The notes under the pieces: generated by a model
What the model was told of the DNA's origin: nothing
The model's input: only the letters and a program-made list of their open reading frames with translations
Databases searched by the model: none
NCBI GenBank assembly: GCA_964016885.1
Contig: OZ024741.1
Span: 406,100,001 to 406,164,000 of the forward strand
DNA length: 64,000 nt
From: Eledone cirrhosa
Taxonomy: Eukaryota
Reading direction: 5' to 3'
Translations under genes and position numbers: made by a program
In this document: positions 10,615-39,919 of the stretch, piece by piece
Layout: each line of letters begins with the position of its first letter
Position numbering within the stretch: position 1 is the stretch's first letter

Positions 10615-12585
10615 TTACTTACCTTCCTGGCTCTTGTGAAGGTCGGGTTGTTCGACCTCCATAGTTAGTGGGGTTTCTTTTGGGAACCCCTTTAAAAGTC
10701 TTGAAGTGGGTTTTACGTTCAGGGTTCCCACGTCCCGAGGAAAGCTGTCTCGTATTTCTTTGAATATGTCGAGCGACATTCGCACCAGAACCAAATCTTC
10801 CGGCACGCGAAATGTGCTCGATTTAAACATTCCCCCCTCTTTTTGTATATTTTCACTTCGTGCTACGAGGGCCATCAGTTCCTTGTTGGCCCTCCTGACA
10901 AGCACGAAGTTTTGTATGTTTTGTTGGTGTGATTTTATTTGTTTGCGTGGCTGTGGTGGTGATGGTTTTGGTGGTGTTGTTTCGGTTGTGTCTGTGTTTG
11001 TTGTGAGTGCGGTGTCTGTGGTTTCAGATGTTTGTGTGTATATTTGTTCTTGCGTCTGTTTCGGTTGTTTGCGTTTGGGGGATTCTGGTGATGGTGATAG
11101 TGGTGTTGATGTTGGTGTTATTGGAGAGATGTTTGCGTGGATGGTGTCTGCGTTTTTTATTGTGGGTGCTTTTGTGCTTTGTTGAGTTTTTTTTTCTTTT
11201 TGTGTTTCCTTTTTTGTATTTTGGGGGATTTTGGATTTCCCTCATCTTCACTACTAGTAGATGAGGGGTCTGTGTCTGTAAGTGTGTTTGTATGTATGTT
11301 TAAGGTTTTATTGGTGTGTGTATTTGGGGGGGGGGGGGATTTGACAGCTTTCCTCGTTTCCCCCCTGGGTGGTCAATGTTGGTGGTGGTTTTTCTATTGG
11401 TGTTGTAGTTGGTGGTTTTGCCGGTGCAGGTGTTGGTTGTGGTCCTCGCTCCGGCGTCGGCAGCAGTGGAGCCTTTCGACCCCTTGCCTCTTTCAGCAGT
11501 TGAGGGCAGAAGGCTCGCAAATGGGTTTTTTTCCCACAAACAAAACACTGTGGCCTTTTGCCTTCGGTCATAATGTGAATGACAGTCCCATTCTGAAGTC
11601 GGATATGGTCTGGGATTGTCTTCACGTTCTCGGGCCTGACCTGGAGAAGGATCTCCAGGTCAACCCTGGACCAGTCCTCTCTGGCCGTTCTGGTCACTTC
11701 TATAGGGACTGTATCTGTCCCCTCCACAATCACACATCCCAGAAGCCACCACATGTCAAGTCCTGGTGGGATTCTGGGAATGCGGAGACGGGCCGTTCTT
11801 TTTCCCATGTGGGAGGGTACATTATGACCCTGTTGGTTTTGCAAGGAGTCATGGCGTGTTTCATCGCGAGGGCTTCTGACTTGAACAACACCGAAATGGT
11901 GCCGTACTGTCTGCCCCTCTCTATGTACTGGGTGTCTTCTCTGATGCACCTCAGCGCGACTTCGATATCTTCTTGTGGGATTAACGCTGCCCTTTTGGTT
12001 TGTGCTGAGATGCATCTATAATGCACCGTTCTGCGCTCCACTGCCTCAATAGCTTCTACCGGGACAGTTAAGTTGGCCCAGGTTTGCTCTTGCTTGATGA
12101 GCTTCCATGCCTGGGCCAACTTTTCATCTTTGTTTGAGAGGTCCATGTTGAAGCATGGCCCCTTTTTTGCTGCTGCCGCAGCGAAAGTGGTCTTGTTTTC
12201 GTTGGGGGTGTTGTTGACGTTGTTCTTGTTGGTGTTGTTGTTAACACTGTCGCTGTTATCATTGTTGTCTTTGTTGCCACCGTTGTTCTCGGTGCAGTTG
12301 GTATTGTTGCTGTTGGTGTTGTCGCTATTTGTTTTCATGTTAGTGGTGTTGATATTGTTGTTGTATTTGTTTTGTTTTTTTTTGTTATCTGTATTTTCGT
12401 TGTCGCTGTTACTGTCATTTTTTTCAAAATTAGAGTTCTTATTGGTATCATTGGTGTCTTTGTTTACTTTGTTTGTGGTGGTGTTTGTGTTATCAATGTG
12501 TGTTAATTTCGCTGTAGCGCTCCTCTCAACTTCTACGTCATTGTCGCACGACAGCCAACATCGCTGGGGGGCGTGGCTCAGCCAT
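10615..12585 (-). pseudogene. T2 ORF1 (N/T-rich N-terminus, single CCHC knuckle), frameshifted
   Basis: ORF pieces 11730-12338, 11308-12015 and 10615-10905. Confidence 0.8.
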
Positions 12586-13158
12586 GTTTTTTTTTCGTAA
12601 ATTTTTTAACATGTAAAAAAAAAAAGTTCAAATATTTGGGCCAAAAGGCCCAAATATTATACTTTCTCCTTCACGGGGCAAAGTCTAAGGGCTTATATCC
12701 CTTACACAACAAGAAATATTTAACAACAAATAATTTTAACAGGCAAATAAAGCGACTTACTGTGAACGAGCAAAATACATCCGCTTAGACCAATAATAAT
12801 AATAATAATAATACACTATTAATAATTATTAATTAATGCAATCGTGCAATGCCTGTGCGTGACGAATATTTTTAAAGTGAGGAAAGACTGTGCACTGAGC
12901 CAATCCCACTCTCTGAGCGACAGTAGCTATAACCCGAAAAGAAGAAAAGATCAACATCATCGGTAACTACTGAGCCGCAGGTTTTATGTCGGAGTTAACC
13001 CAGTTTCCTGAGATGCCTTCTCCTAGAAGAATGCCCTGACAAGGGCTAGGGGTTTTTCACTCCTAGTGGTTTAACTGCGCGATCGGGCATCCAGCCCGAT
13101 TATTTCTATGTCCCCGCGCAAAAAAAAAAAAAAATTATATATATATATATACATACAT

Positions 13159-13206
<48 letters not shown>

Positions 13207-13296
13207 GAAAATATAGAAATTAATGTGAGCAAGAAGCCAACAGTATTTCATAATATGTAAGTGACTATAACGTCAAAATGGAAAATAATTAACGTA

Positions 13297-13356
<60 letters not shown>

Positions 13357-13464
13357 TGTGTGTGTATACATACATATATGTATATGTGTGTGTGTGTGTG
13401 TGTGCGTGTGTCATTGTGAGTGCTTGTGTATGAGTGTATAAGTGTGTAGATATTATGAAATAAT

Positions 13465-14495
13465 AATTGTTTCTACTTTAGGCACAAGGCCAGCAATTAC
13501 CCAGTGCATTACTGGTACTTTATTTTATCGACCCCGTAAGGATGAAAGGCAAAGTCAACCTCGGCGGGATTTGAACTCAGATCGTAAAGGGACGTAACTA
13601 TGCTGGAAAGCATGGCGTCCGACCCTCTACCGATGTTTTAGGCGGAAGGTCAGCAATTTTGGGGGAAAGGGAGAATCGACCCCAGTGTATTACTGGTGGT
13701 TGATTTTATCGACCTCGTAAGGATGAAAATCAAAGCTAACCTCGGCGGGATTTGAACTCAGAACATAAAGGGCCGTAACTTTATGCCGCGAAGTATGTCC
13801 GACGCTCTACCGATTACTGCCAATCCCTTGCTACCCTAACGTGTGTGTGTGTGTGTGTGTGACAGGTATATCTCGTTGGAGGTGTCTTGGGTAGTTTAAT
13901 GATAGGGACCCCAGTCCTATCATCTCATTTCTACAGCTGAGTAAACTGGAGCAACGTGAAATAAAGTGTCTTGCTCAAGGAAACAACACATCACCCGGTC
14001 CGAGAATTGATCTCACAACGTTTCCATTGCAAGTCCAATGCTTTAACTACTAAGCCATGCGCCTTCACTAAGGTGTGTGTGTAAACTAAAAACGAGAAAG
14101 AATATCTTAATAAATATAAAATACTTTTTATGTGTAAAGACTCTTAGCAGACGACAGGATAAAAGTGAAATCAATGTTTAATATAAACATAATATAACGG
14201 TTTCTGATTTAGGCAGAAGGCCAGCAATTTTGGGGGAGGGGAAGGCGATTAAATCGACCCCAGTGTATTACTGGTATTTTATTTCCTTGTCCCCGTAAGG
14301 ATGAAAGGTAAAACTAACTTCGGCAGGCTATCTAAACGCAATATAATTGTTTATACTTTTGGCACAATTACCCAGTGCATTATTGGTACTTTATTTTATC
14401 GACCCCGTAAGCACGAAAAATAAAGTTAACCTCAGAACGCGAAGGGCCATAACTCTATGCTGCAAAGCAAGGTGTTTGATGCTCTACCGATACTA
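13465..14495 (-). mobile_element. SINE cluster: family A copies (~13465-13634, 13636-13825, 14200-14330, 14347-14495) and a CORE-type SINE (~13864-14068)
   Basis: Family A core motif is present. Family B carries CCTTGAGCAAGACACTTTATTTCACGTTGCTCCAG. The cluster is mirrored at ~19160-20195. Confidence 0.85.
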
Positions 14496-14891
14496 CCAAG
14501 CCTTCTAAAGGTAATATAATGATAACCAAAACAAGAATAGAAGATAGTAAGATACTGTGGTAGGTATTGAAGTAGCTATTAAAACTATTGCTATCATTCA
14601 ACACTTTCACATACTGGGGCCCCAAGCTTTAGGGAATTTGAGGTCCTTCTCTAAAAAAATATTATTTATATTTTCATGTTATAAAGAATAGATAGTGTGC
14701 GTGTATGTGTGTGTGTGGTGTGTGGTGTGTGGTGTGTGGGTTCATTTTATTAAGGTTAAATAATGAGTATTGTTACTCGGGCGAATCTCCAGAGTAAGAA
14801 GACTCACTATTTAGCGATAATAAAATGAATATTTAAACTCTATTCCTGTATTGAATACACTTTCCTCTCAGCCGTCACCCACATACATAAT

Positions 14892-14927
<36 letters not shown>

Positions 14928-14961
14928 GTATATATATATATTTATTAAAATAACAGATTAA

Positions 14962-15012
14962 AGTTTAAGCAAAGAATCGCTGCTTTCACCCTTAACGGGA
15001 TCTTCTGAAACT
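14962..15012 (-). ncRNA. Type I hammerhead ribozyme, CAGAAGA core (inverted pLTR copy)
   Basis: Reverse complement of 18639-18689. Confidence 0.8.
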
Positions 15013-15597
15013 AACAAAGTCAATCTGTAAACGCAGAACTGGATATTTCAAAAAACGTTGCAACCGGAGGAAGACAGGGAGACGATACTTTGGTTCGTGG
15101 AAACGTTCGCTGGCAAAGAACGGGAAAAAACGAATAATACGTCATTAATAGGAGCGGTGAAAAACAATTACGCGCAAAGACAGAACCACGTTTATGGTAT
15201 AAAAGAGGTCGTAGACTAATGTTCTCTTAGGTGGTGCATAGAGACGTTCTCTGGCAATGAACGAAAAAACGAAGATAATAAGTCGTATGTGGAGCGTGGA
15301 GAACAATAGCACGCAAAGACAATGGTATAGCAGAACAATAGCACGTAAATGGTATAGCAGAAGTCGTAGACTAAAATTAATCTCCGCTACAGAGTTAAGA
15401 ACAAAGTAAATAAATACAATACAGAAGTAATAGAAACAAATAAATACATACATGCAAACAGATACGTACATACACAAGCATACGCAAAACCTTACCATAG
15501 GCATACAAAACCACGCACATATAAATATGTGTGTGTGTGTGTATGCTTGTGTACAAATAAATAAATAATTAGAGCACTCTACTGACTTATTTTCATT

Positions 15598-17727
15598 ATG
15601 CAGAAACAACATCTGAATATTTCTACAAAGAACATACCCGTACCAAGCAGGAAAACATACCTAAAACTCCTGATACAGAAAACCGACGCGTTCATTAAAA
15701 GGTTGCGTTGGCGTGCCTTTTATTTCGATAATCCGCGAAAAACAGACAACAAACAGGATAAATTTGGATTTAAAACCTATAATAACCCTCCGTGGAACCC
15801 AGCATTGCTACCCTTCGAAAATGATGTCTTGGAACTCATTCGGAATATCAAATTTCGGAATAGGAGCAATTCCTTCCAGCAAGACCTGAAGAATAGAATT
15901 CGTTCTATTAAGGATTCTAACGCCGTGCACGTCCATTCCGACAAAACTGGCAACCTATATCAAGTGGAGCGCAGTACTTACCATCAACTAGTACATAATG
16001 CTGTAACTAAGGATTACCGTAAAACTAATCGGTGCGTCATCAATGAAATCAACGATGCTGGGTTTAAAATCACATCTGATCTCAACATCCTGGACCGGAC
16101 CGAACCTCTGGACCCTATCTCTCCCCACTTTACCATGAAGTATCACAAATCCAATTTTCCGAACAACCCCTCTATTCGGCTTATTAACCCTAGGAAGTCC
16201 GATTTAGGTAGACTTAGTAAAACGATTCTTGATAGAATTATACCTGAAATTATAAGTTTGGCCCCTCTCGCACTGTGGAACAATTCTTTCGCGGTGATTG
16301 ATTGGTTCAACGGCATATGTAACAAGGAACATTGCCGTTTTATCCAATTCGACATCAACAATTACTACTCCTCCATCACTTTACCACTTCTCCTTAGAGC
16401 TATCAATTTCGCTAAAACACTCACAGTGGTTAAGGATTTTGAAGTTGATGTCATCCTTAATGCCCGAAAGTCGGTGATTAATTTCGACGACTCTATTTGG
16501 ATTAAAAAATCCAATAGTACCCCATTCGACGTGAGTATGGGCGCCAGTGACTCTGCGGAGGTTACTGATCTTATTGGCCTTTTCCTTCTTTTCTCTATCA
16601 AGGACGAATTCCCCAACGCGGGCGGTGGTTTGTACCGTGACGATGGTGTTTTGACCATGAATAAGTGCGGACCTCGTGCTTGCGACAGGTTCAGAAAAGA
16701 ACTCACAGCCTTCTTTAAAGGCTTCAACCTCTCTATACAGGTTGAGGCCAATCTCTCGGTCGTTAATTACCTCGACGTTACCCTCAATTTATTGAATGGG
16801 TTGTATTACCCGTATAGAAAGCCGAATGATACGCTTAATTACATAAGTGAGCATTCCAACCATCCTGCCAGCATAACCAAGAACCTGGTAAGAAACGTTT
16901 CGTTGAGGCTTTCCCGTCTTTCCACCAACGAGCGCATTTTCAACGACCATTCCACTTATTACAATGAAGCTCTTGCTCGAAGTGGATTTGTCGATAAGGT
17001 AGCATATACAGAGTACGAAAATAGACCTAGAAGAAATAGATCCCGTCGCATTTGTTGGTTTAACCCACCATATAATATGGAGGTGGCCACACCATTAGCT
17101 AAGATCTTTCTTTCCCTTACTACAAAGCATTTTCCCCCTACACATAAATATAGTAAAATTTTTAATAGAAATACTATTAAAATTTCTTACTCTACGACTC
17201 CTAACCTTGCACATAACATCACAGCTTCAAATTTAGCTAAACTACCTAGCCGTAGGAACACGTGCAACCCTGTAGTTAGTACTAACTGTAATTATAGGAA
17301 TCGGGCTGATTGCCCCCTATCCGGGAAATGCCTCTCTAGTAACATTGTCTACAAATGTAAGGTTGTAACACCCACGTCCCATAGGGCCTACATAGGGTTA
17401 ACCGCCAATAGTTTCAAGCAGCGTCTTTACATGCATACCCATTCTTTTCGCTACCCTCTAAGAAGGAATATGACGTCACTTTCAGCTTATATCTGGAGTC
17501 TAAAAGATAACCACACCCAATATAAGTTACACTGGGAGATCCTAGCTAGGGCTAGATCGTATAACGGAAATAAAAGACCATGTGACCTCTGCGCCGCTGA
17601 GGCCCTGGAAATACTCTACGCCACAGACCACATCTTAAACAAAAAATCTGAGGCAATTTCGGCTTGTAAACATAAATTGCACACAACTTTCCTGTATTAC
17701 AGCCCCACGTTATACCCTAACGGATAG
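15598..17727 (+). CDS. Penelope/Naiad RT + GIY-YIG endonuclease, 709 aa, uninterrupted
   Basis: STKNIP..FIKRLRWRA, DKTGN, FDINNYY, MGA, YRDD, YLDV, Cys linker CNY..CPL..C, IVYKC..YIG..FKQR..H, CDLC..E, LNKKSE..CKH. Confidence 0.93.
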   Translation: MQKQHLNISTKNIPVPSRKTYLKLLIQKTDAFIKRLRWRAFYFDNPRKTDNKQDKFGFKTYNNPPWNPALLPFENDVLELIRNIKFRNRSNSFQQDLKNRIRSIKDSNAVHVHSDKTGNLYQVERSTYHQLVHNAVTKDYRKTNRCVINEINDAGFKITSDLNILDRTEPLDPISPHFTMKYHKSNFPNNPSIRLINPRKSDLGRLSKTILDRIIPEIISLAPLALWNNSFAVIDWFNGICNKEHCRFIQFDINNYYSSITLPLLLRAINFAKTLTVVKDFEVDVILNARKSVINFDDSIWIKKSNSTPFDVSMGASDSAEVTDLIGLFLLFSIKDEFPNAGGGLYRDDGVLTMNKCGPRACDRFRKELTAFFKGFNLSIQVEANLSVVNYLDVTLNLLNGLYYPYRKPNDTLNYISEHSNHPASITKNLVRNVSLRLSRLSTNERIFNDHSTYYNEALARSGFVDKVAYTEYENRPRRNRSRRICWFNPPYNMEVATPLAKIFLSLTTKHFPPTHKYSKIFNRNTIKISYSTTPNLAHNITASNLAKLPSRRNTCNPVVSTNCNYRNRADCPLSGKCLSSNIVYKCKVVTPTSHRAYIGLTANSFKQRLYMHTHSFRYPLRRNMTSLSAYIWSLKDNHTQYKLHWEILARARSYNGNKRPCDLCAAEALEILYATDHILNKKSEAISACKHKLHTTFLYYSPTLYPNG

Positions 17728-18095
17728 CACGACCTATACGTGGATATTTTACGTCTTGATGTGGGAGCTAAGTATATTTTTTGTTTATTCCTTTACTTAT
17801 TTTCATAGGTAAGTATATATTACCCGTATGTTTTGTGAAGGTATGTATACTTTCTCGTACGTATATTTGACTGTTATGGCGTATCATTTTTACATAGTCC
17901 GGTATTTAGGGTTTGGCTATGTGTATACGGGAGTTTCGCGTCTGCGTGACTATGCAGGTTCGTACGTATGGTGGGTGGGTGTATATGTGTACTTCTTGTT
18001 TTAGTTGACTTACGTCTCCGATCATTCGTGTATTTATATGTAGGTATGCGTGTGCGCTTGTTATATACGTATTTATTTACTTATATACATTGATA

Positions 18096-18709
18096 TAATT
18101 ATGTATTTATTTGTACACAAGCATACACACACACACACATATTTATATGTGCGTGGTTTTGTATACCTATGGTAAGGTTTTGCGTATGCTTGTGTATGTA
18201 CGTATCTGTTTGCATGTATGTATTTATTTGTTTCTATTACTTCTGTATTGTATTTATTTACTTTGTTCTTAACTCTGTAGCGGAGATTAATTTTAGTCTA
18301 CGACTTCTGCTATACCATTTACGTGGTTTTGTCTTTGCGTGCTATTGTTCTCCACGCTCCACATACGACTTATTATCTTCGTTTTTTCGTTCATTGCCAG
18401 AGAACGTCTCTATGCACCACCTAAGAGAACATTAGTCTACGACCTCTTTTATACCATAAACGTGGTTCTGTCTTTGCGCGTAATTGTTTTTCACCGCTCC
18501 TATTAATGACGTATTATTCGTTTTTTCCCGTTCTTTGCCAGCGAACGTTACCACGAACCAAAGTATCGTCTCCCTGTCTTCCTCCGGTTGCAACGTTTTT
18601 TGAAATATCCAGTTCTGCGTTTACAGATTGACTTTGTTAGTTTCAGAAGATCCCGTTAAGGGTGAAAGCAGCGATTCTTTGCTTAAACTTTAATCTGTTA
18701 TTTTAATAA

Positions 18710-18763
<54 letters not shown>

Positions 18764-20301
18764 ATTATGTATGTGGGTGACGGCTGAGAGGAAAGTGTAT
18801 TCAATACAGGAGTAGAGTTTAAATATTCATTTTATTATCGCTAAATAGTGAGTCTTCTTACTCTGGAGATTCGCCCGAGTAACAATACTCATTATTTAAC
18901 CTTAATAAAATGAACCCACACACCACACACCACACACCACACACACACATACACGCACACTATCTATTCTTTATAACATGAAAATATAAATAATATTTTT
19001 TTAGAGAAGGACCTCAAATTCCCTAAAGCTTGGGGCCCCAGTATGTGAAAGTGTTGAATGATAGCAATAGTTTTAATAGCTACTTCAATACCTACCACAG
19101 TATCTTACTATCTTCTATTCTTGTTTTGGTTATCATTATATTACCTTTAGAAGGCTTGGTAGTATCGGTAGAGCATCAGACACCTTGCTTTGCAGCATAG
19201 AGTTATGGCCCTTCGCGTTCTGAGGTTAACTTTATTTTTCGTGCTTACGGGGTCGATAAAATAAAGTACCAATAATGCACTGGGTAATTGTGCCAAAAGT
19301 ATAAACAATTATATTGCGTTTAGATAGCCTGCCGAAGTTAGTTTTACCTTTCATCATTACGGGGACAAGGAAATAAAATACCAGTAATACACTGGGGTCG
19401 ATTTAATCGCCTTCCCCTCCCCCAAAATTGCTGGCCTTCTGCCTAAATCAGAAACCGTTATATTATGTTTATATTAAACATTGATTTCACTTTTATCCTG
19501 TCGTCTGCTAAGAGTCTTTACACATAAAAAGTATTTTATATTTATTGAGATATTCTTTCTCGTTTTTAGTTTACACACACACCTTAGTGAAGGCCCATGG
19601 CTTAGTAGTTAAAGCATTGGACTTGCAATGGAAACGTTGTGAGATCAATTCTCGGACCGGGTGATGTGTTGTTTCCTTGAGCAAGACACTTTATTTCACG
19701 TTGCTCCAGTTTACTCAGCTGTAGAAATGAGATGATAGGACTGGGGTCCCTATCATTAAACTACCCAAGACACCTCCAACGAGATATACCTGTCACACAC
19801 ACACACACACACACGTTAGGGTAGCAAGGGATTGGCAGTAATCGGTAGAGCGTCGGACATACTTCGCGGCATAAAGTTACGGCCCTTTATGTTCTGAGTT
19901 CAAATCCCGCCGAGGTTAGCTTTGATTTTCATCCTTACGAGGTCGATAAAATCAACCACCAGTAATACACTGGGGTCGATTCTCCCTTTCCCCCAAAATT
20001 GCTGACCTTCCGCCTAAAACATCGGTAGAGGGTCGGACGCCATGCTTTCCAGCATAGTTACGTCCCTTTACGATCTGAGTTCAAATCCCGCCGAGGTTGA
20101 CTTTGCCTTTCATCCTTACGGGGTCGATAAAATAAAGTACCAGAAATGCACTGGGTAATTGCTGGCCTTGTGCCTAAAGTAGAAACAATTATTATTTCAT
20201 AATATCTACACACTTATACACTCATACACAAGCACTCACAATGACACACGCACACACACACACACACATATACATATATGTATGTATACACACACACACA
20301 C

Positions 20302-20352
<51 letters not shown>

Positions 20353-21345
20353 TACGTTAATTATTTTCCATTTTGACGTTATAGTCACTTACATTTTATG
20401 AAATACTGTTGGCTTCTTGCTCACATTAATTTCTATATTTTCATTTAGATATATATATATATATATATGTGTATGTATGTATGTATATATATATATATAC
20501 ATTTTTTTTTTTTTTGCGCGGGGACATAGAAATAATCGGGCTGGATGCCCGATCGCGCAGTTAAACCACTAGGAGTGAAAAACCCCTAACCCTTGTCAGG
20601 GCATTCTTCTAGGAGAAGGCATCTCAGGAAACTGGGTTAACTCCGACATAAAACCTGCGGCTCAGTAGTTACCGATGATGTTGATCTTTTCTTCTTTTCG
20701 GGTTATAGCTACTGTCGCTCAGAGAGTGGGATTGGCTCAGTGCATAGTCTTTCCTCACTTTAAAAATATTCGTCACGCACAGGCATTGCACGATTGCATT
20801 AATTAATAATTATTAATAGTGTATTATTATTATTATTATTATTGGTCTAAGCGGATGTATTTTGCTCGTTCACAGTAAGTCGCTTTATTTGCCTGTTAAA
20901 ATTATTTGTTGTTAAATATTTCTTGTTGTGTAAGGGATATAAGCCCTTAGACTTTGCCCCGTGAAGGAGAAAGTATAATATTTGAGCCTTTTGGCCCAAA
21001 TATTTGAACTTTTTTTTTTTACATGTTAAAAAATTTACGAAAAAAAAACATGGCTGAGCCACGCCCCCCAGCGATGTTGGCTGTCGTGCGACAATGACGT
21101 AGAAGTTGAGAGGAGCGCTACAGCGAAATTAACACACATTGATAACACAAACACCACCACAAACAAGGTAAACAAAGACACCAATGATACCAATAAGAAC
21201 TCTAATTTTGAAAAAAATGACAGTAACAGCGACAACGAAAATACAGATAACAAAAAAAAACAAAACAAATACAACAACAATATCAACACCACTAACATGA
21301 AAACAAATAGCGACAACACCAACAGCAACAATACCAACTGCACCG
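18096..21345. repeat. Right arm of the giant inverted repeat (pLTR + ~2.65 kb copy of the left flank, including the T2 5' end)
   Basis: Near-identical reverse complement of 12290-15571, with scattered substitutions and microsatellite length differences. Confidence 0.97.
18639..18689 (+). ncRNA. Type I hammerhead ribozyme, CAGAAGA (U4A) core
   Basis: AGTTT-CAGAAGA-t-CCC gttaa GGG-t-GAAA-GCA gcgattctt TGC-TT-AAACT. Stem I is extended by ACAGATT/AATCTGT (18623-18698). Confidence 0.82.
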
Positions 21346-21548
21346 TTTTTTGAAATATCCAGTTCTGCGTTTACAGATTGACTTTGTTAGTTTCAGAAGA
21401 TCCCGTTAAGGGTGAAAGCAGCGATTCTTTGCTTAAATTTTAATCTGTTATTTTAATAAATATTTGCTCTACGGTTCTTATATATTTGATATATATTTTC
21501 CTTATCGAGCCCTCTTTGGATTTTAGTCTTCAATTTTATTTTTATTAC

Positions 21549-21550
<2 letters not shown>
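21346..21550 (+). mobile_element. Third PLE1 pLTR 3' segment with hammerhead (21389-21439) and an extra ~90-nt tail, ending in (TA)n
   Basis: Matches 18596-18710, then continues with a tail matching the reverse complement of 62420-62505. Confidence 0.9.
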
Positions 21551-21621
<71 letters not shown>

Positions 21622-21674
21622 ATTATGTATGTGGGTTATATATATATATACATATATATGTGTGTCATTTGCTT

Positions 21675-21726
<52 letters not shown>

Positions 21727-21744
21727 AAGCAAATGACACACAAA

Positions 21745-23700
21745 TGTGGTATAGGAATGCCAGCCCAGCACTCTGTGATGAGGTGGAGTATTGTTTGTGC
21801 TATGTTCTTATTACCAACCTTTAAGAATTCCACAAGGATTCCATCTGATCCAGGTGCCTTACACGTGTTTAACTGGTTGATGGCCATTTTAACCTCATTA
21901 TAATCTGATAATCAATCCATTTTAAAATTTACAACACATTGGGGGATGCCATCTAGCACATCGGGATCAACTGATGATCGATATCAAATAAATCAGTGAA
22001 ATGTTCTTTCCAACGCTTAAGGATTTTCTCTGATTCCTTGATGATGGCAGTGTCGTCTTTGGACCTAATGGGAACAATAGACTAAGTTGGACTATATAAT
22101 GCACACAAAATACTATAAAACAGGTTTGAATGCTTTGCTTTATAAGCACTTTGAATATCTTCAGCGATTTTGAACAACCATTTATTTTTAAGCCTTCTCG
22201 GCTCAAGGTGTAAGGTGGCTTTATATTCTTTATATGTCTTTTAATAGCAATTAAATTCGTAGGGCACTCTCCCAGAAGATTGTCATGGAGAGCATGTTTT
22301 TTCTTTAATAGTCGGCTGATAACCAGATTATAATCATCAAACCAGACTTTATGTTGTTTTTTCGCCATGAATCTAAGTTCATCTGCTCCTGCTGTATACA
22401 ATTGATCCCTGAAGTTTATCCAAGTTCCATCGAAGTCAATATTATTCAAACGTTTATTCCAAGCCTCACATACCTCTTACTGTTTTAACTTTCCAACGTC
22501 AATACGCTTCAGTGTTTTGATCCCACACATACGAGATTTTTTCCGAATACGTAACTTAAACTTCCCTGAACCATTTTATGGTCTGTGCTGCATTCTGTAC
22601 TACGCATTACGCGCACATTACAGACATCATTCAGGTCACATCTCTGGGTTACTATGAAATCTATCGTGTGGCCATCTTTTGACCTTGAGTGTATCTAGGT
22701 AACTTTATGCTTCTCCTTTTGGCGGAAGAATTGCTAGGTTGAGTTCCGAACAGAGCTGGAGCACCTTCAAACCATTGGCATTCATCTTATCGATGCCGTA
22801 ATGGCCTAGTGCATCCCATGTCACGTGGTCTCTGCCAACACGGGCATTGAAATTACCAAGAATGATTACTTTTTCTTCGACTGGAGTAGATGCAATTGTA
22901 GCACGAAGGGATTCATAGAATATCATAATACTTTCTTCACTGGCCTAGAGAGTTGGAGCATAAACTGACAGAATAGTTGCACATCGCCCACATTCAAGTG
23001 GAATGCGCAACTTCAATTTACGATCATTGATTCTAGAGGGGCACTCTAAATATTGTGCTAGAGTTTCTCGCACCGTCTCACTGTTCTCCTTTTGGTTTCC
23101 CTGTCCAGAAAAGTGTGAAACCGATGATACTTCAGTCAGCTGATGATACCCTGATAGACGAGTTTCTGACAAGACTGCAATATCTATATTTAATCTTTGG
23201 AGTTCATTTGTTACCATTGCAGTTCTTCTTTCTGGTCGGTTTGATGAGTTTTGGTCCAGGAGGGTTCTGACATTCCAGCAGCAAATATTGAGTTTGATTC
23301 GATTTTTCATAAATGTTTTACTTTGCAATTCCCTTTTTCTTTTCCTGCTTGAATGAACCGCCAATAGCTGCAGTAAACTACCCAACGTTGATGTGACAGG
23401 CATGTTTCAAGGCACCTTTTCTAGCACCTTCTCAAGGATTTGAGTGAACAGTGCTCGCCCTGACTCAAACACAGGCCTCTCCAATGGAGTTAGCCCACAT
23501 AACATAAAGACATAACAACGATGTTATGATAAGACCCCTGCCGCCTATGTGTAGATTTGCAACTATATGCTTCCAACTGGTAAGGTCTGCACACGTCACC
23601 ACTCCACCATCGCCATAGGACTTTCAGCTGTAAAAATGACAGATGAGAAGATCACAAAAGAGACACCAGTACATCATTGGATTATAGTGACAAACGCTTG
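21745..23700 (-). mobile_element. Degraded RTE-BovB-type LINE, 5' part (APE to start of RT), 3' part missing
   Basis: CCWNVRTLLD..PERRTA, LSETRL, SVYAPTL, GNFNARVG and KAPGSDGI, with many frameshifts. The 5' boundary is approximate. Confidence 0.85.
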
Positions 23701-26462: not shown

Positions 26463-26806
26463 AAGAAAGCAAGGTATATATAGAGAACATGATGAATACT
26501 ATTACGGATACATTGGGGTGTTCATTATAACAACAGGAGGAAAGTGATATTTCAAGGACTGTAGTAGTAGTAAAATAATGTACTTAGAATCTATCTCTTC
26601 TCTGCTGCTGTCCAAACCACCTTTGACCAAGCAATTATATCTCACATTAGCACTCATGATCTTCAACAAATGAACTTAATTCTAAGTACATTATTTTACT
26701 ACTACTACAGTCCTTGAAATATCACTTTCCTCCTGTTGTTATAATGAACACCCCAATGTATCCGTAATAGTATTCATCATGTTCTCTATATATACTTTGC
26801 TTTCTT
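26463..26806. repeat. Inverted repeat, ~128-bp arms (26463-26590 / 26679-26806), ~90-bp spacer
   Basis: AAGAAAGCAAGGTATATATAGAG..TACTTAGAAT versus its reverse complement, about one mismatch. Confidence 0.93.
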
Positions 26807-27369: not shown

Positions 27370-28775
27370 ATATATATGTACGTATGGATTCACCAAACAT
27401 TTATTATAATGCTCGTATTAAGCCGTAGTGTCTAGCAACCACCGTTGCTCGTTTGTTCAACACTGACAAAGGAACGATGTACTAGTTTCAAGCTTGTTAG
27501 CTATCGTCAGCAACGTATACCTTCCTGCCAGATAGTTGTACGTCCGAAAGTATATACTTTCCTTATGCATATTAACGGCTGATATATATACACCCACATA
27601 TGTGCACACAATCATATACATATATACATATATATATATACACACACTGATACATACATATATATATGTACACACACATACATGTACACACACATACATA
27701 TATACCCACATATATATATTCCCATATCATACATACATAGATACATATATACCCATGCAATTACAGGTGGTTATGTACCTTGTTGCCTTTAGTCATTAAC
27801 GCATGAATCTAAGGAAGCTAAAAAATTAAAAGGTTAAAAAAAAAAAAAAATAAGCAGGAATCCGTATAATTAGAGGAAGGGGATACTAACAAATGTTACG
27901 TTACATAGAATTATAGTGAGTTGCTATTTAGAATATTTAATTAGGTTTATAGTACTTAAATGTTTTTCGTATACGGTGATTACAAGCTATAATCAGTTCC
28001 TGTCTTTTATTCAATAAATCGTCCTTAGATTTAGTCATTTCCAAGATCTCCCCTGAACATAATCTGCATTCTCTCCTGTTCCCAAGATATTGAGTTCTTT
28101 GTAGAATGGTGTTCCACGATAGCTTGAAATCTATTTTTTTCTTTTTATAGTTATTTACTGCTTCAGCTAAAGATGTGGTGTTAGCTAGTTTAGTATTGTT
28201 AAAGCTACTAGAGTGTGCGTAATATCTTTTCTTAAATGTGTTCGATGTATATCCTATATATGTTTTGTTGGAGTCAGTAGTAGACACAGTGCATTTAAAC
28301 ATTACATTATTAATCAAACAGTTGCCATTTAAGGGGCAAACGCTTCTATTTCTGCAATTACAACCATGCTTAAGATGGTTGTTGGGGGGTACCTACATAG
28401 TTCTCATTAATCATTGATATTGTAATTAATATTGTAATTAATGTTAGCGAGAAAATGAAGGCTGCTCTGTGGGTGGTTTAGTGCTAGGGTTGTATTGTAA
28501 TTTTGTGTTGTGTTGTTTTTGTGTTGGTGATTTGGGTGGTTGTAGTTTTCCAGGTTGAAGATTTGTATTATTTGTCCTTTTAAAAGGTGCAGTCCTATTT
28601 AAATTATGTTGTGGTGGTGTGGTCATATTATTTTTAAATTTATAAATGTTGTAGTTGCTTATTTTTTGCTGGAGATTGCTTGATGTAGAGTATGAGAATT
28701 TAACAGTATACCTGTTAAATATTTGGTGGTATCTGTGGTTTGGTGGAAAATGTTTATGTAGAATTTCGAAGAAAT
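27370..28775 (-). mobile_element. Naiad-type PLE 3' fragment (PLE3): RT thumb, GIY-YIG, 3' UTR with hammerhead
   Basis: KHFPPNHRYHQIFNR..SYSTS, CNCRNRSVCPLNGNC, YIG..FKKRYYAH, CRLC..E and LLNKRQE..CNH; stop at 27937. Confidence 0.88.
27474..27516 (-). ncRNA. Minimal type I hammerhead, canonical CTGACGA core
   Basis: ACGTTG-CTGACGA-t-AGCT aaca AGCT-t-GAAA-CTAG-TA-CATCGT, with a palindromic stem III. Confidence 0.85.
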
Positions 28776-30043: not shown

Positions 30044-30060
30044 CTATATAGATAGATAGA

Positions 30061-33000
30061 AATGTTTCTTTTATTTGCCACCAGGGCATCAAAAGTGGGA
30101 CAAGTACAATGGGCGGAGTTTACAAAACAAGGCGTCCTCAATAAGGAGGAGGCAATAACAAAATATAAAAATAAAATAAAATATAACAGAATAAAATATA
30201 TAACAAAATCCTCAATAGAGAGGAGGCGCCTTGGGGGGGGCGCACACACCCTCGAAAAAAGTGTGCAACCCTTTTCCTCAGGAGCACAGAGAAGGGGTGC
30301 TCCCTTGGTCTTTCATCTTCCTCATCTATAGTCTGATGTAGAGTGAAGGCCCATTCACACGGGCCATTCTCGCCACTTTCACCCATCTTTCATAAAAACG
30401 GCTGGGGTGCAGCACCTCTCTCTCCATCCTGATCCTTCTTCCGAAATGATATCGGAAAAAACGGACCAGTTGTTGGCCAGGGAGAAAGGTGTCTGACCTC
30501 AGTCCTTTCAGACGCGTCCACCATACAACCTCTTTCGCCATGGCTATTACGCACAGAAACACTGCCTCTCATTCGTTTTTGAAGAGGGGAGGCGGCTTGA
30601 TCGTTACAATAGACTCGGTGGTCAACCGGATCGGTCCCACCCTTGACAGCAGTTGTTCGACATAGCCCCACAGATCAGCAATGCCCGAGAAGTGTACCAA
30701 TGCGTGTGCAACGGTTTCCTAGTCGCACACGCATCTGGGACAGATCTTTTTCGAGGGGTCCCTACCCGGGCGCCCGTGTCTGTAGAGCCTTTCTCGAACG
30801 GGCAGAGCCCTTCTGTAGCACTGCCAAGCCAGGGACCTCTGGAAGTTATTCATGGGTCCCGGGCTGAATGTCCTACCGAACAGGTTGGCCAGTTTGTCTT
30901 CCTCCATGCCTAGGGCTTCTCCGAGGGCGTCGTCGCACCTGCTAACCACCAGCCTTCTATAGAATGACGAGATGGATTCTCCACTGACAGACGGGTCCGC
31001 CTGCCAGAGGGCCGTGAGCGCATGGGCACACTCGGTGTGCCAGGCGCCCAGTTTTCTCGGTCTTTGCTTGACCCAGGATTGCAGCTCGGTGAGTGAGACG
31101 AGTCTGGGAATGGCTCGCCTCACAAACGGGGCCCACACCGGTTGACCGGAGAGGAATACCTAGAGGTGCCGTAGCCTTAATGCGTGTTTACGTATCATTA
31201 GCCACGGCATTCCCAACCCTCCTTTCGAAGGGTGTTGACAGCAGATGGATCTCCTCACCATAGGAGCCGGCTTCTTCCAAAGGAATTGGAAGAGTGCGCG
31301 CTCCATTTTGGCGAGCGTTTCCCTTGGGCAAGGCACAACGGTCAGGCGGTAGTAGATGACGGACGCTATATAAGTGCTCGCCACCTCCGCCCGACCTTTC
31401 AGGGACAGTTTGCACTCGGCCCACTTCTGGGTCAGTGCAAACACCCAGTTCATCTCCACCTGGAGGTCTGGTCCGAACCAGACCCCGAGCAACTTCACCG
31501 GGCCCTCCGTCCAGCGCCCGACGACGTCATCGGAGGGCATCGATCTGCCCCTCCACGTGTCGAGTTGCAGACCGATCGACTTGTCGCGGTTCAGCTTAGC
31601 CCCAGTAAACCTTTCGTACTCCTCCAGTAAGGTGCCGATCGCCACGATTTCCGAGGCCGTAGACACCATTACTGTTACGTCGTGGGCGTAGGCCGACACC
31701 GCTTTCCGCAATCCCGGTTCCAACGGGATGCCCTGCAACAACTCCAACTTCCGCAGCAGTGGCTCTAGAGTCATTACATACAGAAGGGAGGAGAGAGGGC
31801 ACCCTTGTCGGATGGACCGCGCGATTTCGAACGGCTCCGAGAGGTAGCCGTTCACCTTGAACCTAGAGCAGATGCGGCTGCTGTGCATGGCATTGATCCA
31901 GCCCCTGAAAACGGGTCCGAAGCCTGCCGCCGCTAGCACCGCATCCAGGTAACCATGCTCGACCCTATCGAATGCCTTAGATTGATCCAAGTTGATCAGG
32001 GCCCCACCAAAGCCGGGTTCGTTCCCAACCCTCTCTATGATGGTGGAGGTTGTCGTGGATGGACCTGGACGGGATAGCACATGTCTGCGAATCTCCCACC
32101 AGGTTGCCCACGACAAGCGCCAACCTCTTTGCTAGCACCTTGGCCAAAATCTGTAACTCTGTATTTAGCAGAGTTATGGGCCTGAAATTATTTATATCGT
32201 CCCCCTTGTTCTCGTCCTTCCTCACTAGCGTGACTACGCCCTTGGTCACAGCCAGGGAATTCTCCAGTTATGTCGCCAGTTGCAGTAGACCGCCTCGAGG
32301 AGATCGGGGAACAAGTCCGGCATAGCTAGATATAGTTCGTATGGAAGACCATCGAGACCCGGGGATTTGCGTTTGCCGCATTGGCTCAGCACGTCCTCTA
32401 TCTCAGCGGCTGAAATCGGCTCCTCGCAGGACTTCGCCTCCCTGTCCGAGAGACGCGGCAGGCCGTCGAGGTATGGACCGAAGTCCACATCCCCAACCGG
32501 CTCCCCGCCCCTTCCGAACAATCCGGCAAAGTGCTTTTGAAAAGCCTCGCACATCTGCTTAGGTTCAAGGATCACTCGTCCATCCTGGTCTCGCAAAGAT
32601 CGGATAGTGGATTTGCTCCCTCTTTTGGCTTCTGTCACGCGGGCCGAGCTAACAGCTTTGGTCCCCTCGTTTCCCAGAGCACGTATTTTGCTTCAGACGA
32701 TGCAGCCTTCGTGTTTCGCGTCGAAGAACTGGCCCAGGGCCGTTCTCGACGCTAGCACTCTGGCCACGTCGCCGCTTCTAATTGCCTCTTCTACACTATC
32801 TACCAACTCCCTTTCCTTCCTATTTCTATTTGAGGCTAACTCCTTACTAAATTCTATAGAGACTACTCTAATCTCTCTTTTGAGAGATCCCCACCACCTG
32901 CTGTTGACGATGGCGCCCATCAACCGCTCCTTAACTAAAGTGCTAATCCGGTCCCTGTAAGCCTTACTTGCCGGTAAGGACAAGTTGAGCTTCCAGTAAC

Positions 33001-35742
33001 CGGGTCCCTGTCTATGAGTTCTGTCAAGGTTGACCATGCAGGTCACTAACTTGTGGTCTGAATAGCCAACCATGCGCATTTTTGGACAACTTAAAAAGGC
33101 CTTATCCTTAATTCTAACTAAGAACCTATCTAGGTACGACCTAGATGATCCGCTATGATTTGCCCAAGTCCAGGTTGGCGCAGTCGGAAAATCTAGTCGA
33201 TATCTATCGGCCAGGTCAAATCGACCGATTAACCCTTTGAGGCTATTACACCCCTCTCTATCGGGACAGGCCCCTACGTAGTCCCAGCGTGCATCTAGGA
33301 TACCATTCCAGTCCCCCACTAATAGCAAGGAGCGGGACGTCCCTAGAAAAGTCTCCAGACGATGGAAGAAGTCCGGCCGCATTGACCCGAAAGGGCCGTA
33401 TGCGGCTACCAACCTAAACGTTCCGCCTTCACCACTGCCAAGGTCCAGAACGACTAGTCGACTCTCCGAGTCCAAATGTACCATCTGTGTTGCGAGACCC
33501 AGATGTTTTTGCAGCAGAACGACAACCCCACCCCCAACTCCGGGCTGACAGAGAGATGCGTGCATCTCAAAGTCATCAAAGGTGGGGGCCAGCTGTCGCA
33601 CGTTGCTGATCCGGGCCTCGCAAATAACCATCACATCTATACGTTGTGACCTGAGGTCATTTAGAAGCATTGCTTGCTTCCAAGTTGAGCCCAGGCCACG
33701 CGCATTTAAACGGCCTACTCTTAGCATAGCCATGTTGGTGGTGAAGAGAAAAGGCACTTACCTCTCTGCGTCCCGGGTATCGGGCTGCACAATTTCCATT
33801 AGGGTGGGGGATGGGTTGTTGAGTGGGGTGTGGTTTGTGGAAGTGTAGGGGCATCAGTGTGTTGTGTGGTTGGGGTGTTTGGAGTTGTGTGGGTGTTTGG
33901 GGAGGGGGTGGGGTAGTTTTTTTAGAAGGACGTGGTTAATGGGCCCGACGCAGGGGGGACCCACGTCCTCTTTAAAGTTGTTTTTTAAAGTTTTATAAGT
34001 GTCCTGTGGGGCCTTAATCATTTTGAGGTGTTGGAAATCCCCTGCCTGGGTGAAGTTAGGCCCTTGGGTTTTTATTGTATTGTTGTTGTACACAATGTTT
34101 AACAGTTTTTTGTTTCTTGTGTTTATGTATGTGTATGCATGTTTTTGTTTTTGTGTGGTGTTTTTTGTTTGCTGTTGTTGTGAGCTCTTTTGTGTTGGTG
34201 TCAGTGTTATGTTTTGGGGAGGGGTTGTTTTCATTTGTGTGTCTGAGGTGTGGTTTTCTTTTTTTTCTTTTGATTGTGTGGAAGTGCTCCTCCTCGTCTG
34301 ACGACGAACTAGGGTCATCTTCCGCGTTGGAGGGGAGGGGTATATTTTCGGGTTGTGTTTGCGGTACGGGTGTTTTGGAAATTGTTTTTTTTTAGTGGGG
34401 AGGATGGGTTGGACATTGTTTTATTTTGGTTTGAGCTGTGGTTGTTGTTTTTGTAGTGGTAATTGTATTGGTTGTGTCGGTTGTGCAGTTGTTGGTGGTG
34501 TAGGCAGGATTGGGGTTTTCTTATTAAGTTGGGGACAGACAGCCCTCAGGTGACCTCTGGTTCCGCAGAGGTAACACGAGGGCCGCCTACCCTCAACGGT
34601 AATGTTGATGAAAGTTTGATCCTCCAGTATGACGCGTTCAGGGATCTGGGCGATCCTTTCGGGCCTCATTTGAACTACAAGTTCGTGGCTCGTTCCACTG
34701 AACGCGTCACTCGATGCCTTTCCCATGGACACCAGCATGTCATCATCCAGGTTCAGGAAACCTGTCAAAACCCACCATATGTCCATAATCGGCAGGATGG
34801 TGTGGATTTTTATTTTTTGTGTTCTTCTACCCATGTACGTAGGGTAGAAGGTGTATGCGGTGGGTGTGATTGGTTTGATGGACAGTTTCACTGCTGTGTC
34901 CCTGTCCTTAATGAGAATGGATAGACTCCCGTAGAGTCTATCCTTCTGAATGAAGGTGATGTCTTTCATGACGTCTTTTAAAACCAGCTCTATCTCACTC
35001 TGTGATGGTTGAGCTGGTTTTTTGCTTTTATTCGAGATTGTCCTAAACATGACAGTGTTTAGGAGTCTCTGGCTTTTTAGTTCCGGGGGGAATGCATCTT
35101 GAATGAACCATTTTCCCCGTACACTATATATTTTTGCATCTGCCAATAGCTCCTTCGCTTTGGTTATATCTACTGGCAGATAGTCGAGGGTTTTCCTTGC
35201 CGTCTGGGCGAAGGAGACCCTTTCCCTGCTTGTGTTGCTGTTGTAGTTGGTGGTGTTGTTGCTATCATTGTTGTTGTTATCACAGTTATTGGTTTTGTTG
35301 TTGTTGTATTGTTATTGGTTTTGTTTTCGTCCGGCGCATTGTTGTTGTTGCCGCTGGTTCTTTGGTTTGTTGCCATGGCAACGTCAAGTTGTCGGTCAGC
35401 AGATGGAGAAAATCCTTCCTCTGGCTGACCTTTGTTTTTGACCTCTGCTACTGTGACAGTGGCAGGGGGAAGCTGTAAGTTTATCTTCCTTTTTCCTCCT
35501 TCGAATTTTGGTGAAGAAGCTTTAGCCATTTTAAAAAATGTTAACTTTTCAACAAGAAAAAAAACTTTTTTTGTTTAACTATTTCGCCTAAAGGCGTAGA
35601 ATATTTTGAGAGACTGACCAGATCAAAATTTGACCTGGCAGTCCCTCTACAAAATGGTACAAAAATTAGAGTTTACAGACAAGAATTTCTATAGAAATTT
35701 AAACAGAACTTACTCAGCAAGTTATACGCGTGTGTCCATCCC
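30061..35742 (-). mobile_element. Full-length L1/Tx1-type LINE (T4) in (GATA)n, disrupted
   Basis: ORF1 (~35529-33758) has CYLCGTRGHLRAVC. ORF2 (33733-30326) has APE, RT (YAHD in place of YADD) and zf-RVT. Confidence 0.92.
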
Positions 35743-35743
35743 A

Positions 35744-35756
35744 GAGATAGATAGAT

Positions 35757-35835
<79 letters not shown>
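35744..35835. repeat. (GATA)n microsatellite between T4 and T5
   Basis: Direct reading. Confidence 0.97.
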
Positions 35836-38800
35836 TGTTTATTAGCCACAGGGGCACAACAGAAAGGGACAAATACAAAGGGGGAAGTTTACATAGAATA
35901 AAAACGTGTAAAATATTATCACGAATGTAATTTAAAAATTAGTCGATTTTCCCCAATAGGTGGAGACATTTCATATGGGTAACACATAGCCCCGAAAAAA
36001 ATTTGCAACCCTCATCTTCAGGAGTACGAAGAGTTTGTATTCCTTTCCTCTCCTCCTCTTTTTCCTCAACCTACAGGCTGATATAGAGAGAAGGCCCATT
36101 CACTCAGGCCATTCTCACCACTTTCACCCACCTTTCATAAAACTTGCTGCGGTACAGCACCTCTCTCTCCATCCTGATTTTTATTCCAAAGTGGTATTTG
36201 AAAAAAAGAATCAATTGTTGGCGGGAGAGAAAGGTCTCTGAACTCAACCCTTTCATCCTTGTCCACCATACAACCTCTTTCGCCATAGCTATCACACAAA
36301 GGAAAACCGCCTTCCTTCGTTTTTGAAGGAGGGTAGCGGTTTGATCATGACAATGGACTCAGTGGTCAACCGGATTGGTCCCACCCGCGAAAATAGTCGA
36401 TCTACATAGCCCTACAGGTCGGTGACGCCCGGGCAGTGTATGAATGCGTGCGTGACGGTTTCTTCGTCTCGCACGCACCTCAGACAGATCTTTTTTTGGA
36501 GAGTCCCTGCTCGGGCGCCCATGTCTGTAGAGCTTTCTCGAACTGGTAGAGCTCCTCGGTAGCACTGCCAGGACAGTGACTTTTGGAAGTTGTCCATCGG
36601 TCCTGGGCGGAAGGTCCTACGGAACAGACTGTTCAGTTCGTCTTCCTCTACGCCCAGAGTTTCACCGAGCACGTCGTCGCACTTGCTGCGGATCAACCCT
36701 CTATAGAATAACGAAGTGGAGTCACTAATGACCGCCGGGTCCGCCTGCCAGAGGGCTGTGAGCGCCTGAGCACATTCGATGTGCCAGTCGCCCATTTTCC
36801 TCGGTCTTTGCTTGACCCAGGACTGCAGCTCGGTCAGCGAGACGAGTCGTGGCAACGTTGTCTGGTGAGGAATACGTGGAGATGCCGCAGCCTGAGCGCG
36901 TGTTTGCGCATCGTCAGCCACGGCATCCCCAGCCCCCCATTGGAAGGGCGTTGGCAGCAGATGCATGTTCTCACCAAAGGAGCCCGCCTCTTCCAAAGGA
37001 ATTGGAAGAGCGCGCGCTCCATTTTGGCGAGCGTTTTGGCTGGACAAGGCACGACGGTCAAGCGGTAGTAGATGGCGGACGCTATAAAAGTGTTCGCCAC
37101 CTCCGCTCGACCTTTCAAGGATAGTTTGCACTCGGCCCACTTCTGGGTGAGTGCAAACACCTTGGCCGACACCGCGTTCCAGTTCTTCTCCACCTGGAGG
37201 TCCGGACCAAACCAGACCCCGAGCAGCTTTACTGGTCCTTCCGTCCAGCGTCCGACGACGCCATCAGAAGGCATCGGTTTGCTTCTCCACGATCCGAGTT
37301 GCAAACCGATGGATTTGTTCCGGTTCAGCTTCGCTCCTGTGAACCTTTCGTATTCCTTCAGTAAGGTGCCGACTTCCTCGATTAGCGAGGCGCTCGACAC
37401 TATTACTGTCACGCCGTCGGCGTAGGCTGACGCCGCTTTCCGCAGTCCCGGTTCCAGAAGGATGCCCTGCTAAGAATAGCTCCAACTTATTATAATAGCT
37501 CCAACTTATATTATAATAGCTCCGCTGTAGTGGCTCGAGAGTCAATACGTACAGAAGGGAGGAGAGAGGGCATCCCTGTCGAATGGATTGCGTGATATGG
37601 AACGGCTCCGAGAGGTAGCCGTTCACCTTAACCCTTGAGCAGATGTTGCTGTTATGCATTGCAGAAATCCAGCCCCTGAACACGCGTCCGAAGCCTGCCG
37701 CCTCGAGCACCGCATCCAGGTAACGATGGTCAACCCTATAAAAAGCCTTAGACTGATCCAAGTTGATCAGGGCCCCACCGAAGCCGGGTTTACACCCTAC
37801 CCTCTCTATGATGTATCGCATGATGTGGAGGTTGTCGTGTATGAACCTGGTCGGGATTGCCCATGTCTGCGCTTCTCCCACCAGGTTCTCGACAAGCGCC
37901 AGCCTCTATGCCAACGCCTTGGCCAAAATCTGTAACTCTTTGTTTAGCAGGGTTATGGGGCGGAAGTTGCCTATGTCATCCCCCTTATTCTCGTCCTTCC
38001 TGACTAGTGTGACTTCGCCCGCGGTCACAGAACTGGGAATTTTCCCGTTCTGTTGCCAGTTGCAGTAGACCGCTTCCAGGAGACCGGAGAATAAGTCGGG
38101 CATTGCTACGTAAAATTCGTAGGGTAGACCGTCGAGACCTGGAGATTTGCGTTTGCCGCATTGGCTCAACGCGTCCCCTATCTCAGCGGCTGAAATCGGC
38201 TTTTTGCAGAACTTTGCCTCGCTGTCCGAGAGTCGCGGTAGGCCGTCGTGGTATGGACCAAAATCCAAAGCCCCTCCCGGCGCACCGCCCTTCCCGGACA
38301 GCCGAGCAAAGTGCCGCTGAAAGGCCGCACACATCTGCTTCGGCTCACGTATCACGCGTCCGTTTTGGTCCTTCAAAGACCGAAGCGTAGACTTGTTGCC
38401 ACTTTTTGCCTTCGTCACTCGGGCCCAGCTAACAGCTTTGGCTCCCTCCTTTCCTAGAGCACGTATTTTGCTTCTGACAACGCAGCCTTCATGCTTTGCG
38501 TCGAAGAACTGGTCTAAGGCCGTTCTCGCTGCTAGCACGCTGGCTACGTTGCCACTTCTAATTGCCTCTTCTACTTTATCTACCAGTTCCTTCTCGGTTC
38601 TATTTCTATCTAACGCTAATTCTTTACTAAAAACTAACGAGTCTAATCTAACTGCTTTCTTGAGAGAGTACCACCATCTGTTGTTGACAATGGCCCTTGT
38701 CAAGTGCTGTTTAACTAAAGTGCTAATCCGTCTACTGTAGGCTTTGCATGTCGGTAACAACAAGTTCAGCTTCCAGTAGCCGGGTCCTTGTCTATGGGTT

Positions 38801-39915: not shown

Positions 39916-39919
39916 ATAA

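Follow-up and report, generated by a model that had tools for sequence, protein, structure and literature searches.

A Hydra-clade Penelope-like element in Eledone cirrhosa with an inverted copy of its left flank that may have arisen during integration

The 64,000 nucleotides of the Eledone cirrhosa genome analysed here (assembly GCA_964016885.1, contig OZ024741.1, positions 406,100,001 to 406,164,000; the whole stretch is called the window below) contain a Penelope-like element (PLE) whose open reading frame (ORF) of 709 amino acids lies between two long inverted arms. Self-BLAST of the window aligned 12290-15571 with 21345-18096 over 3286 columns at 98.1% identity (E=0), confirming the near-identical arms around the ORF that a first-pass annotation of the sequence had reported. 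The left arm has 3282 bp and the right arm 3250 bp. The former consists of 634 bp of pseudo-long terminal repeat (pLTR) and 2648 bp of host flank, in agreement with the pLTR share of about 620 bp per arm given before. The inverted arms stand; as a spacer of 2524 bp separates them, the structure, which had been called a 9-kb palindrome, is an interrupted inverted repeat. The inverted duplication is probably real.

The original left flank (12290-14937, plus strand) is made up of the 5´ end of an older Tx1-like long interspersed nuclear element (LINE), termed T2, another high-copy repeat, blocks resembling short interspersed nuclear elements and microsatellites, and it terminates in the (CA)n(TA)n target. 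Adjacent to it is pLTR A (14938-15571, minus strand), which is inverted and 5´-truncated, has a short end without a tail and carries a 16-bp slippage insert near 15323-15341. A leader of 26 nucleotides (15572-15597, plus strand) precedes the ORF (15598-17727, plus strand) and starts with GAGCAC, the 3´ strand of a stem found in Hydra tails. Downstream of the ORF lies pLTR B (18096-18713, plus strand), which lacks the 16-bp insert, also has a short end without a tail and contains a hammerhead-like core at 18644. It is followed directly by the inverted copy of the left flank (18714-21345, minus strand). The return junction is located at 21339-21345 (plus strand), where the flank letters TGCACCG lie over TGCAACG of the pLTR (18589-18595), a match at six of seven positions. 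Beyond it, pLTR C (21346-21548, plus strand) is 5´-truncated; 21346-21463 repeats 18596-18713 with one difference and is followed by a long tail (about 21464-21548) with a GCTC/GAGC stem, joined to (TA)n. The alignment thus bears out the earlier description of a copy that stops at TGCACCG, re-enters the pLTR at TGCAACG and ends with tail and (TA)n.

At the right end, beyond 21550, we found two short inverted pieces in addition to the features listed before. One is a second inverted piece of the end of the left flank (23 nucleotides, 21614-21636, minus strand) that matches 14877-14899 and 18756-18778 exactly, the other a perfect 83-nucleotide hairpin (21659-21742) in which about 20 nucleotides of the right flank and their inverted copy lie around (TA)n. 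A hairpin scan at 55 (TA)n tracts gave one weak match and missed the known hairpin at 21659-21742. No tRNA was found, and within 12000-22000 Rfam gave only matches that lie on simple repeats and do not attain the gathering scores.

The 5´ part of T2 occupies 11730-12790 on the minus strand, and its frame 11730-12605 is open across 12290, whereas the right-arm copy of this frame is cut at 21345, runs into the pLTR and stops. Thus, the left copy is the original, as the first-pass annotation had argued. A 5´ untranslated region of T2 reaching to 13115 was considered and dropped, since the read depth shifts near 20800-20870, which makes 20520-20800 another repeat. The arms differ by 14 substitutions (eight of them transitions) and by indels, with derived changes on both arms. 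Ten places could be polarised with the letters that the repeat family shows in public sequencing runs: six have a non-family letter in both arms (20571, 20580, 20869, 20968, 21078 and 21095), three have one in the right arm only and at one place the left arm has a letter that is not listed. The non-family letters common to both arms show that the right arm was copied from the locus itself and is not a second insertion of the same repeats.

The ORF encodes reverse transcriptase motifs at residues 115-349 and a GIY-YIG nuclease at residues 585-692, hence at the C-terminus. RWR is found at residues 37-39, a position occupied by K or R across the 22 proteins aligned (of 386 available), DKT at residues 115-117, and FD and YRDD are present. 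The nuclease residues are VY585, YIG600, R609, E668 and N681, and CDLC..E..N..CKH at 662-692 provides a CxxC and a CxH around E and N. The family alignment shows no CCHH, and between VY and YIG there are no two cysteines besides the KCK site. According to PMC8557442, Hydra-clade PLEs have a single ORF with a C-terminal GIY-YIG nuclease, RW(K/R), DKT and CxxC/CxH around E and N, lack CCHH, are shorter than 3.2 kb and insert into (TA)n with an inverted 5´-truncated pLTR and a tail at a single border. All five pLTR ends of the family within the window adjoin (TA)n. Based on the C-terminal nuclease, RWR, DKT, CxxC/CxH and the absence of CCHH, the element is, judged by its sequence, a Hydra-clade PLE. 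It had been labelled a Naiad, a group that shares the (TA)n target and the complex tandem and inverted insertions but has an N-terminal GIY-YIG nuclease, CxC, DKA instead of DKG and a CCHH finger (PMC8557442); the ORF has none of these, and the order of reverse transcriptase and nuclease, DKT instead of DKA and the missing CCHH exclude this identity. The ORF had also been called intact, which holds in that the frame is open with its catalytic residues. In the CxCx5C linker, C564 and C572 are present, but position 566 is Tyr where 20 of 21 aligned homologues have Cys, and here it differs from the described clade members. A set of 385 homologues has the same size as the ORF, and Pfam gave no family for it at E 0.01. 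A canonical hammerhead ribozyme in the pLTR is a further trait of the Hydra clade; the hammerhead-like core CAGAAGA..GAAA at 18644 has three short stems by eye, with A at U4; Rfam found no hammerhead in this region at E up to 1 and the folding z was about 0. Single-sequence folds of ribozyme and tail were mostly no better than shuffles.

The family has two types of ends, located about 85-90 nucleotides apart. Short ends are found in A (14938), B (18713) and a further copy at 63364, tailed ends in C (near 21548) and a copy at 62420. Both types occur family-wide in the public runs: 21463 is the point at which 1520 reads end in (TA)n, and head-to-head joints between opposite strands are numerous in the last approximately 130 bp (21368-21501). 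In its textbook form, a PLE has a tail at just one border (PMC8557442), and in vitro the protein of a Poseidon PLE cuts the two target strands and, from two starts on the RNA, extends them (PMC11167929). The outer borders of the studied locus are therefore normal for the clade, A being short and C tailed; the anomaly is the short end of B followed by flank. Compared with the described members of the clade, the arm extends 2648 bp into the flank and a third pLTR piece is present. In addition, the tails of the Hydra elements in this analysis measure about 55-150 nucleotides, while 30-40 bp are stated for PLEs (PMC8557442). The leader at 15572-15597 starts at the 3´ strand of the tail stem and beyond it differs from the tails of C (21507-21548) and of the copy at 62420; because of this mismatch past the stem, the ORF and its 3´ pLTR may derive from different subfamilies.

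Between the two insertion ends, the Hydra tail contains a conserved RNA stem-loop that covaries, with a GCUC/GAGC stem, a 2-nucleotide bulge and a variable upper stem. GCTC..GAGC(A/G)C was found just past the short end at 59 of 248 ribozyme-like sites, compared to 0.4 in shuffles. For the stem alignment we used 41 tails, namely 39 of 44 listed (from loci among L001-L165) and two from the window (21466-21512 and 62449-62519, the latter on the minus strand). Four base pairs are invariant in them by selection; the two upper pairs beyond the bulge, which were not selected for, are paired in 40 and 36 of the 41 tails, with 12 and 18 double changes. With sequence relatedness uncontrolled, 97.6% of all cells of the stem are paired and 30 are compensatory, a level that none of 500 shuffles and none of the slid controls reach. 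The stem-loop is a candidate for a binding or start signal of the reverse transcriptase that sets the two starts of reverse transcription. By analogy, it may be the counterpart of the Poseidon stem-loop at the reverse transcription starts. The words hairpin and stem-loop are absent from the supplement text of PMC8557442.

For the origin of the locus we favour a single Hydra-clade insertion into a (TA)n tract, in which a strand folded back on the element's own inverted pLTR during integration and so produced the inverted copy of the 2648-bp flank; we give this reading a probability of about 0.6. Both cut ends would prime reverse transcription, the left one at the short start (giving A) and the right one at the tail start (on the C side). 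The top strand would then join the right-hand complementary DNA (cDNA) at 15571/15572 and copy the ORF and the pLTR. Somewhere within 18329-18713, the 3´ end of this strand would pair with A, which lies on the same strand and is not yet double-stranded, and would copy the end of A, followed by the left flank, which 5´ resection had probably laid bare. After 2.65 kb the strand would be displaced, re-anneal to the right-hand cDNA at TGCA(C/A)CG and finish through the tail. The two short inverted pieces at the right border might come from the same kind of fold-back of an end. The interval for the fold-back point follows from the 16-bp insert, which is present in A and not in B, provided that the insert arose at insertion. 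A related process is known for L1, which yields inverted duplications by displaced fold-back synthesis (PMC11702581, Fig. S9C): in these and in templated copies of target sites (Fig. S10), a cut end folds back, synthesis runs on the flank, the strand is displaced and the product is joined to the cDNA end. The L1 fold-back uses a short chance homology in the host end, whereas the site proposed here is the 0.6-kb inverted pLTR made by the element itself, and the product at the studied locus is germline and aged.

The direction of synthesis can be read from the return junction, which retains the C of the flank instead of the A of the pLTR. If all seven bases annealed, the flank copy was the primer and the pLTR the template, which favours the direction of fold-back that the first-pass annotation had assumed; the chance of a 6/7 match at a given place is about 0.0009. 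In the opposite direction, a cDNA primed at the right end would copy about 200 nucleotides of tail and pLTR, jump to the bottom strand of the left flank at 12290, run to the cut (TA)n end and restart on the element RNA at the short start. L1 ORF2p is able to copy DNA templates near the cut (PMC11702581), and on the bottom strand the right border does read as a series of jumps (snap-back, the 23-nucleotide left-flank piece, RNA, 2.65 kb of left flank, RNA). A pLTR-derived primer should, however, leave TGCAACG at the junction, only two nucleotides of homology would have been used, the TGCA match then being due to chance, and resection, according to established repair biology, removes the bottom strand of the left end. 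We therefore regard this order of events as improbable.

The comparison of pLTR and flank divergence that the first-pass annotation had suggested showed equal values, with 3/548 (0.55%, confidence interval 0.11-1.60) for the pLTRs and 11/2176 (0.51%, confidence interval 0.25-0.90, microsatellites masked) for the flank (Fisher p=1), a comparison of low power. This fits one event. Nevertheless, the confidence interval permits a younger duplication, as expected if an ordinary insertion with one short and one tailed end came first and a fork or break repair later switched from pLTR B to the inverted A by homology, ran backwards over 2.65 kb of flank and used microhomeology to re-enter the pLTR 125 bp upstream of its end, like the rearrangements that inverted repeats drive at human disease loci. 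The element would then supply only the inverted repeat. Two-switch rearrangements at inverted repeats are known (PMC11293582, PMC10766186), and a signature of two junctions, one hidden in an inverted repeat and the other with 1-9 bp of microhomology or microhomeology, has been described (PMC11293582). In that study's DUP-TRP/INV-DUP (duplication-triplication/inversion-duplication) cases, the first switch lies in an inverted repeat pair, replication runs in reverse and microhomology or microhomeology guides the second switch; at the studied locus, junction 1 likewise lies in the inverted pLTR pair and junction 2 is microhomeologous. Such a later repair also predicts two short ends and a flank letter at the junction, and the missing insert in B, implying that the inner pLTR was not copied from A, agrees with it. 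On the other hand, the point estimates of divergence are equal, and the right border carries the second inverted copy of the left-flank end, a sequence that is now 6.7 kb away but was adjacent when the target was cut. Recurrent human cases favour repeats of more than 10 kb (PMC11293582), while the repeats here have 0.6 kb. The rearrangements also differ in scale (kilobases here, tens of kilobases to megabases there) and in that the repeat here is a retroelement end; an inverted triplicated host segment is absent, the flank being present twice, the ORF once and only the 125-bp pLTR piece three times. Altogether, a later repair event is the main alternative for the origin of the locus, to which we attach a rather low probability.

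The part from 18096 to 21548 has the form pLTR, flank, pLTR, which could also suggest a local 3´ transduction, i.e. that transcription from pLTR A continued into the flank and the resulting RNA, after reverse transcription, re-entered the same site. PLEs can move host DNA between pLTRs, and inverted pLTRs as well as host DNA framed by pLTRs are known from the Penelope elements of Adineta vaga, where inverted structures were explained by self-priming and template jumps (PMC3846280). There, the captured DNA has been brought in from another place or forms a unique spacer, and the main text does not describe an adjacent flank copied in inverted form. A transduction would presuppose that an element had inserted at the same base before, that this insertion was then hit again and that a single ORF was retained, and the lack of A's insert in B and the equal divergences speak against it as well, so that this explanation is hardly credible.

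Thirteen public runs were listed, four of which were aligned over 20520-21545, a stretch that is a high-copy repeat. Of the words sampled from this stretch, a fraction of 0.71-0.77 is present in the best runs, close to the 0.77 expected if the words specific to the right arm are missing. At 20580, 20869 and 21095, some runs lack letters that both arms share, and thus the runs are probably from individuals without the locus. The word share, the lack of a bridging piece among those listed and the fact that a difference of about 0.5% recurs among other local duplicates would agree with a library or assembly artefact, such as a chimeric read or a join of two haplotypes. Yet such an artefact is very unlikely, because the arms differ by 14 substitutions and by indels, with derived changes on both, a 2.5-kb spacer separates them, a second, non-homologous junction leads back to the forward strand and the same layout is found at another locus (L085, see below), where an insertion is present in one arm only. 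The borders, moreover, are normal short and tailed ends, and the aligned runs seem not to carry the locus at all.

How often flank copies occur was examined in 95 related loci and 20 further regions from two binned genomes with animal-like contigs. Two-armed Hydra insertions with both ends visible numbered nine, three in the window, five in genome G001 and one in locus L072. They remained from 13 printed pairs after four had been dropped: L041 and L165 were chance matches to the ribozyme pattern, the pair 13314/14411 of L169 belonged to another family and had lost its right end at the contig end, and the A/C pair of the window was the same insertion as A/B. The 79 metagenome loci were mostly short contigs ending at the element, L072 alone having both ends visible, and no relative was found in viral contigs. 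The loci L080-L095, G001 and G002 come from genomes filed as prokaryotic with animal-like contigs and dozens of PLE matches (54 in G001); these contigs are probably host contamination in the bins.

In seven of the nine insertions, one end is short and the other tailed, and the arms do not go beyond the pLTR. The other two, the studied locus and L085 (7949-12700, from another animal), have two short ends, and both carry an inverted copy of the left flank. In L085 this copy follows the 3´ pLTR over 210 columns with two substitutions and a 31-bp indel, while the pLTR arms show no substitution in 249 columns. It is interrupted in one arm only by a nested pLTR pair of another family. Its left copy runs on into an old host repeat, other copies of which are 67-91% alike, and its right copy is joined to a truncated repeat ending in (TA)n. 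The joining of the flank copy to a truncated repeat of another family fits the capture of a second cDNA and counts against a later repair event as the origin, although a deletion could also explain it.

The window contains further PLE sequences. A second Hydra-like PLE, PLE2 (56526-60730, minus strand), has a 5´-truncated ORF (58064-59902), inverted arms of 710 bp, which show four differences and do not extend past the pLTR, a tail of about 150 nucleotides and a clearer hammerhead-like motif at 60477; its right end was scored as short by the script and counted as tailed because of its long tail (69 versus 220 nucleotides to (TA)n). A head-to-head pLTR pair of the same family as the studied element (62420-63364) is without ORF and has its tailed end on the left and its short end on the right. 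PLE remains are a GIY-YIG fragment with CxCx5C (27937-28392, minus strand) and a small inverted pair beside (TA)n (61890-62110). A 128-bp inverted pair (99%) with a spacer of 88 nucleotides at 26463-26806 cuts into sequence resembling a reverse transcriptase. Two direct duplications (201 and 221 bp, one difference each), both local and recent, lie at 52940-54175 in a pattern of templated insertion. Three Tx1-like LINEs, 76-83% alike, form a tandem cluster on the minus strand (30045-45707).

Several observations weigh against an origin during integration. A later switch at a replication fork yields the identical product; of the fold-back, read-through and second template switch proposed in the first-pass annotation, the anatomy fits all, and the data are compatible with a switch at integration as well as with a later one at a fork. 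With only three pLTR substitutions the timing test is weak, and it leaves room for a duplication several-fold younger than the insertion itself. Differences of about 0.5% are also seen between other local duplicates of the window (PLE2 arms 4/710; 53526-54175 1/221), so that polishing or heterozygosity could account for a baseline share of the divergence. The letter at the junction could have been set by mismatch repair or a later mutation. Among the read and contig pieces listed, beyond which there are 38,080 more, none bridges 21339-21345, the runs being probably without the locus. Finally, without the studied locus, which had been selected, a flank copy is seen in one of eight insertions, and the copy in L085 is much shorter and returns to a different repeat.

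In the literature covered, which takes in few subscription papers and none of the early work on Penelope in Drosophila virilis, where copies of this kind may be described, a reported case of PLE arms that run on into the neighbouring flank was not found. The studied locus duplicates repeats only, and an effect on a host gene is not evident. Together with L085 it resembles a trapped intermediate, and such intermediates would reveal the order of the steps and the direction of synthesis and provide a marker, two short ends, that can be counted in long-read genomes. This bears on how PLEs finish integration and on why their inverted arms have a tail at one end only (PMC8557442, PMC11167929). Tentatively, fold-back on the fresh inverted pLTR might be a regular side path of Hydra-clade integration, in which roughly every tenth two-armed insertion would gain an inverted copy of the resected left flank and be marked by two short ends. 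In that case, animal genomes rich in (TA)n would hold thousands of inverted duplications seeded in this way, each recording by its length how far the cut end was resected. If common, the process would allow PLEs to build kilobase-scale inverted duplications of host DNA, which hypothetically could destabilise their surroundings and give rise to hairpin RNA directed at nearby repeats; the first-pass annotation had likewise put forward long double-stranded RNA and fragile sites as conceivable consequences. PLEs may thus be a recurring source of inverted duplications.

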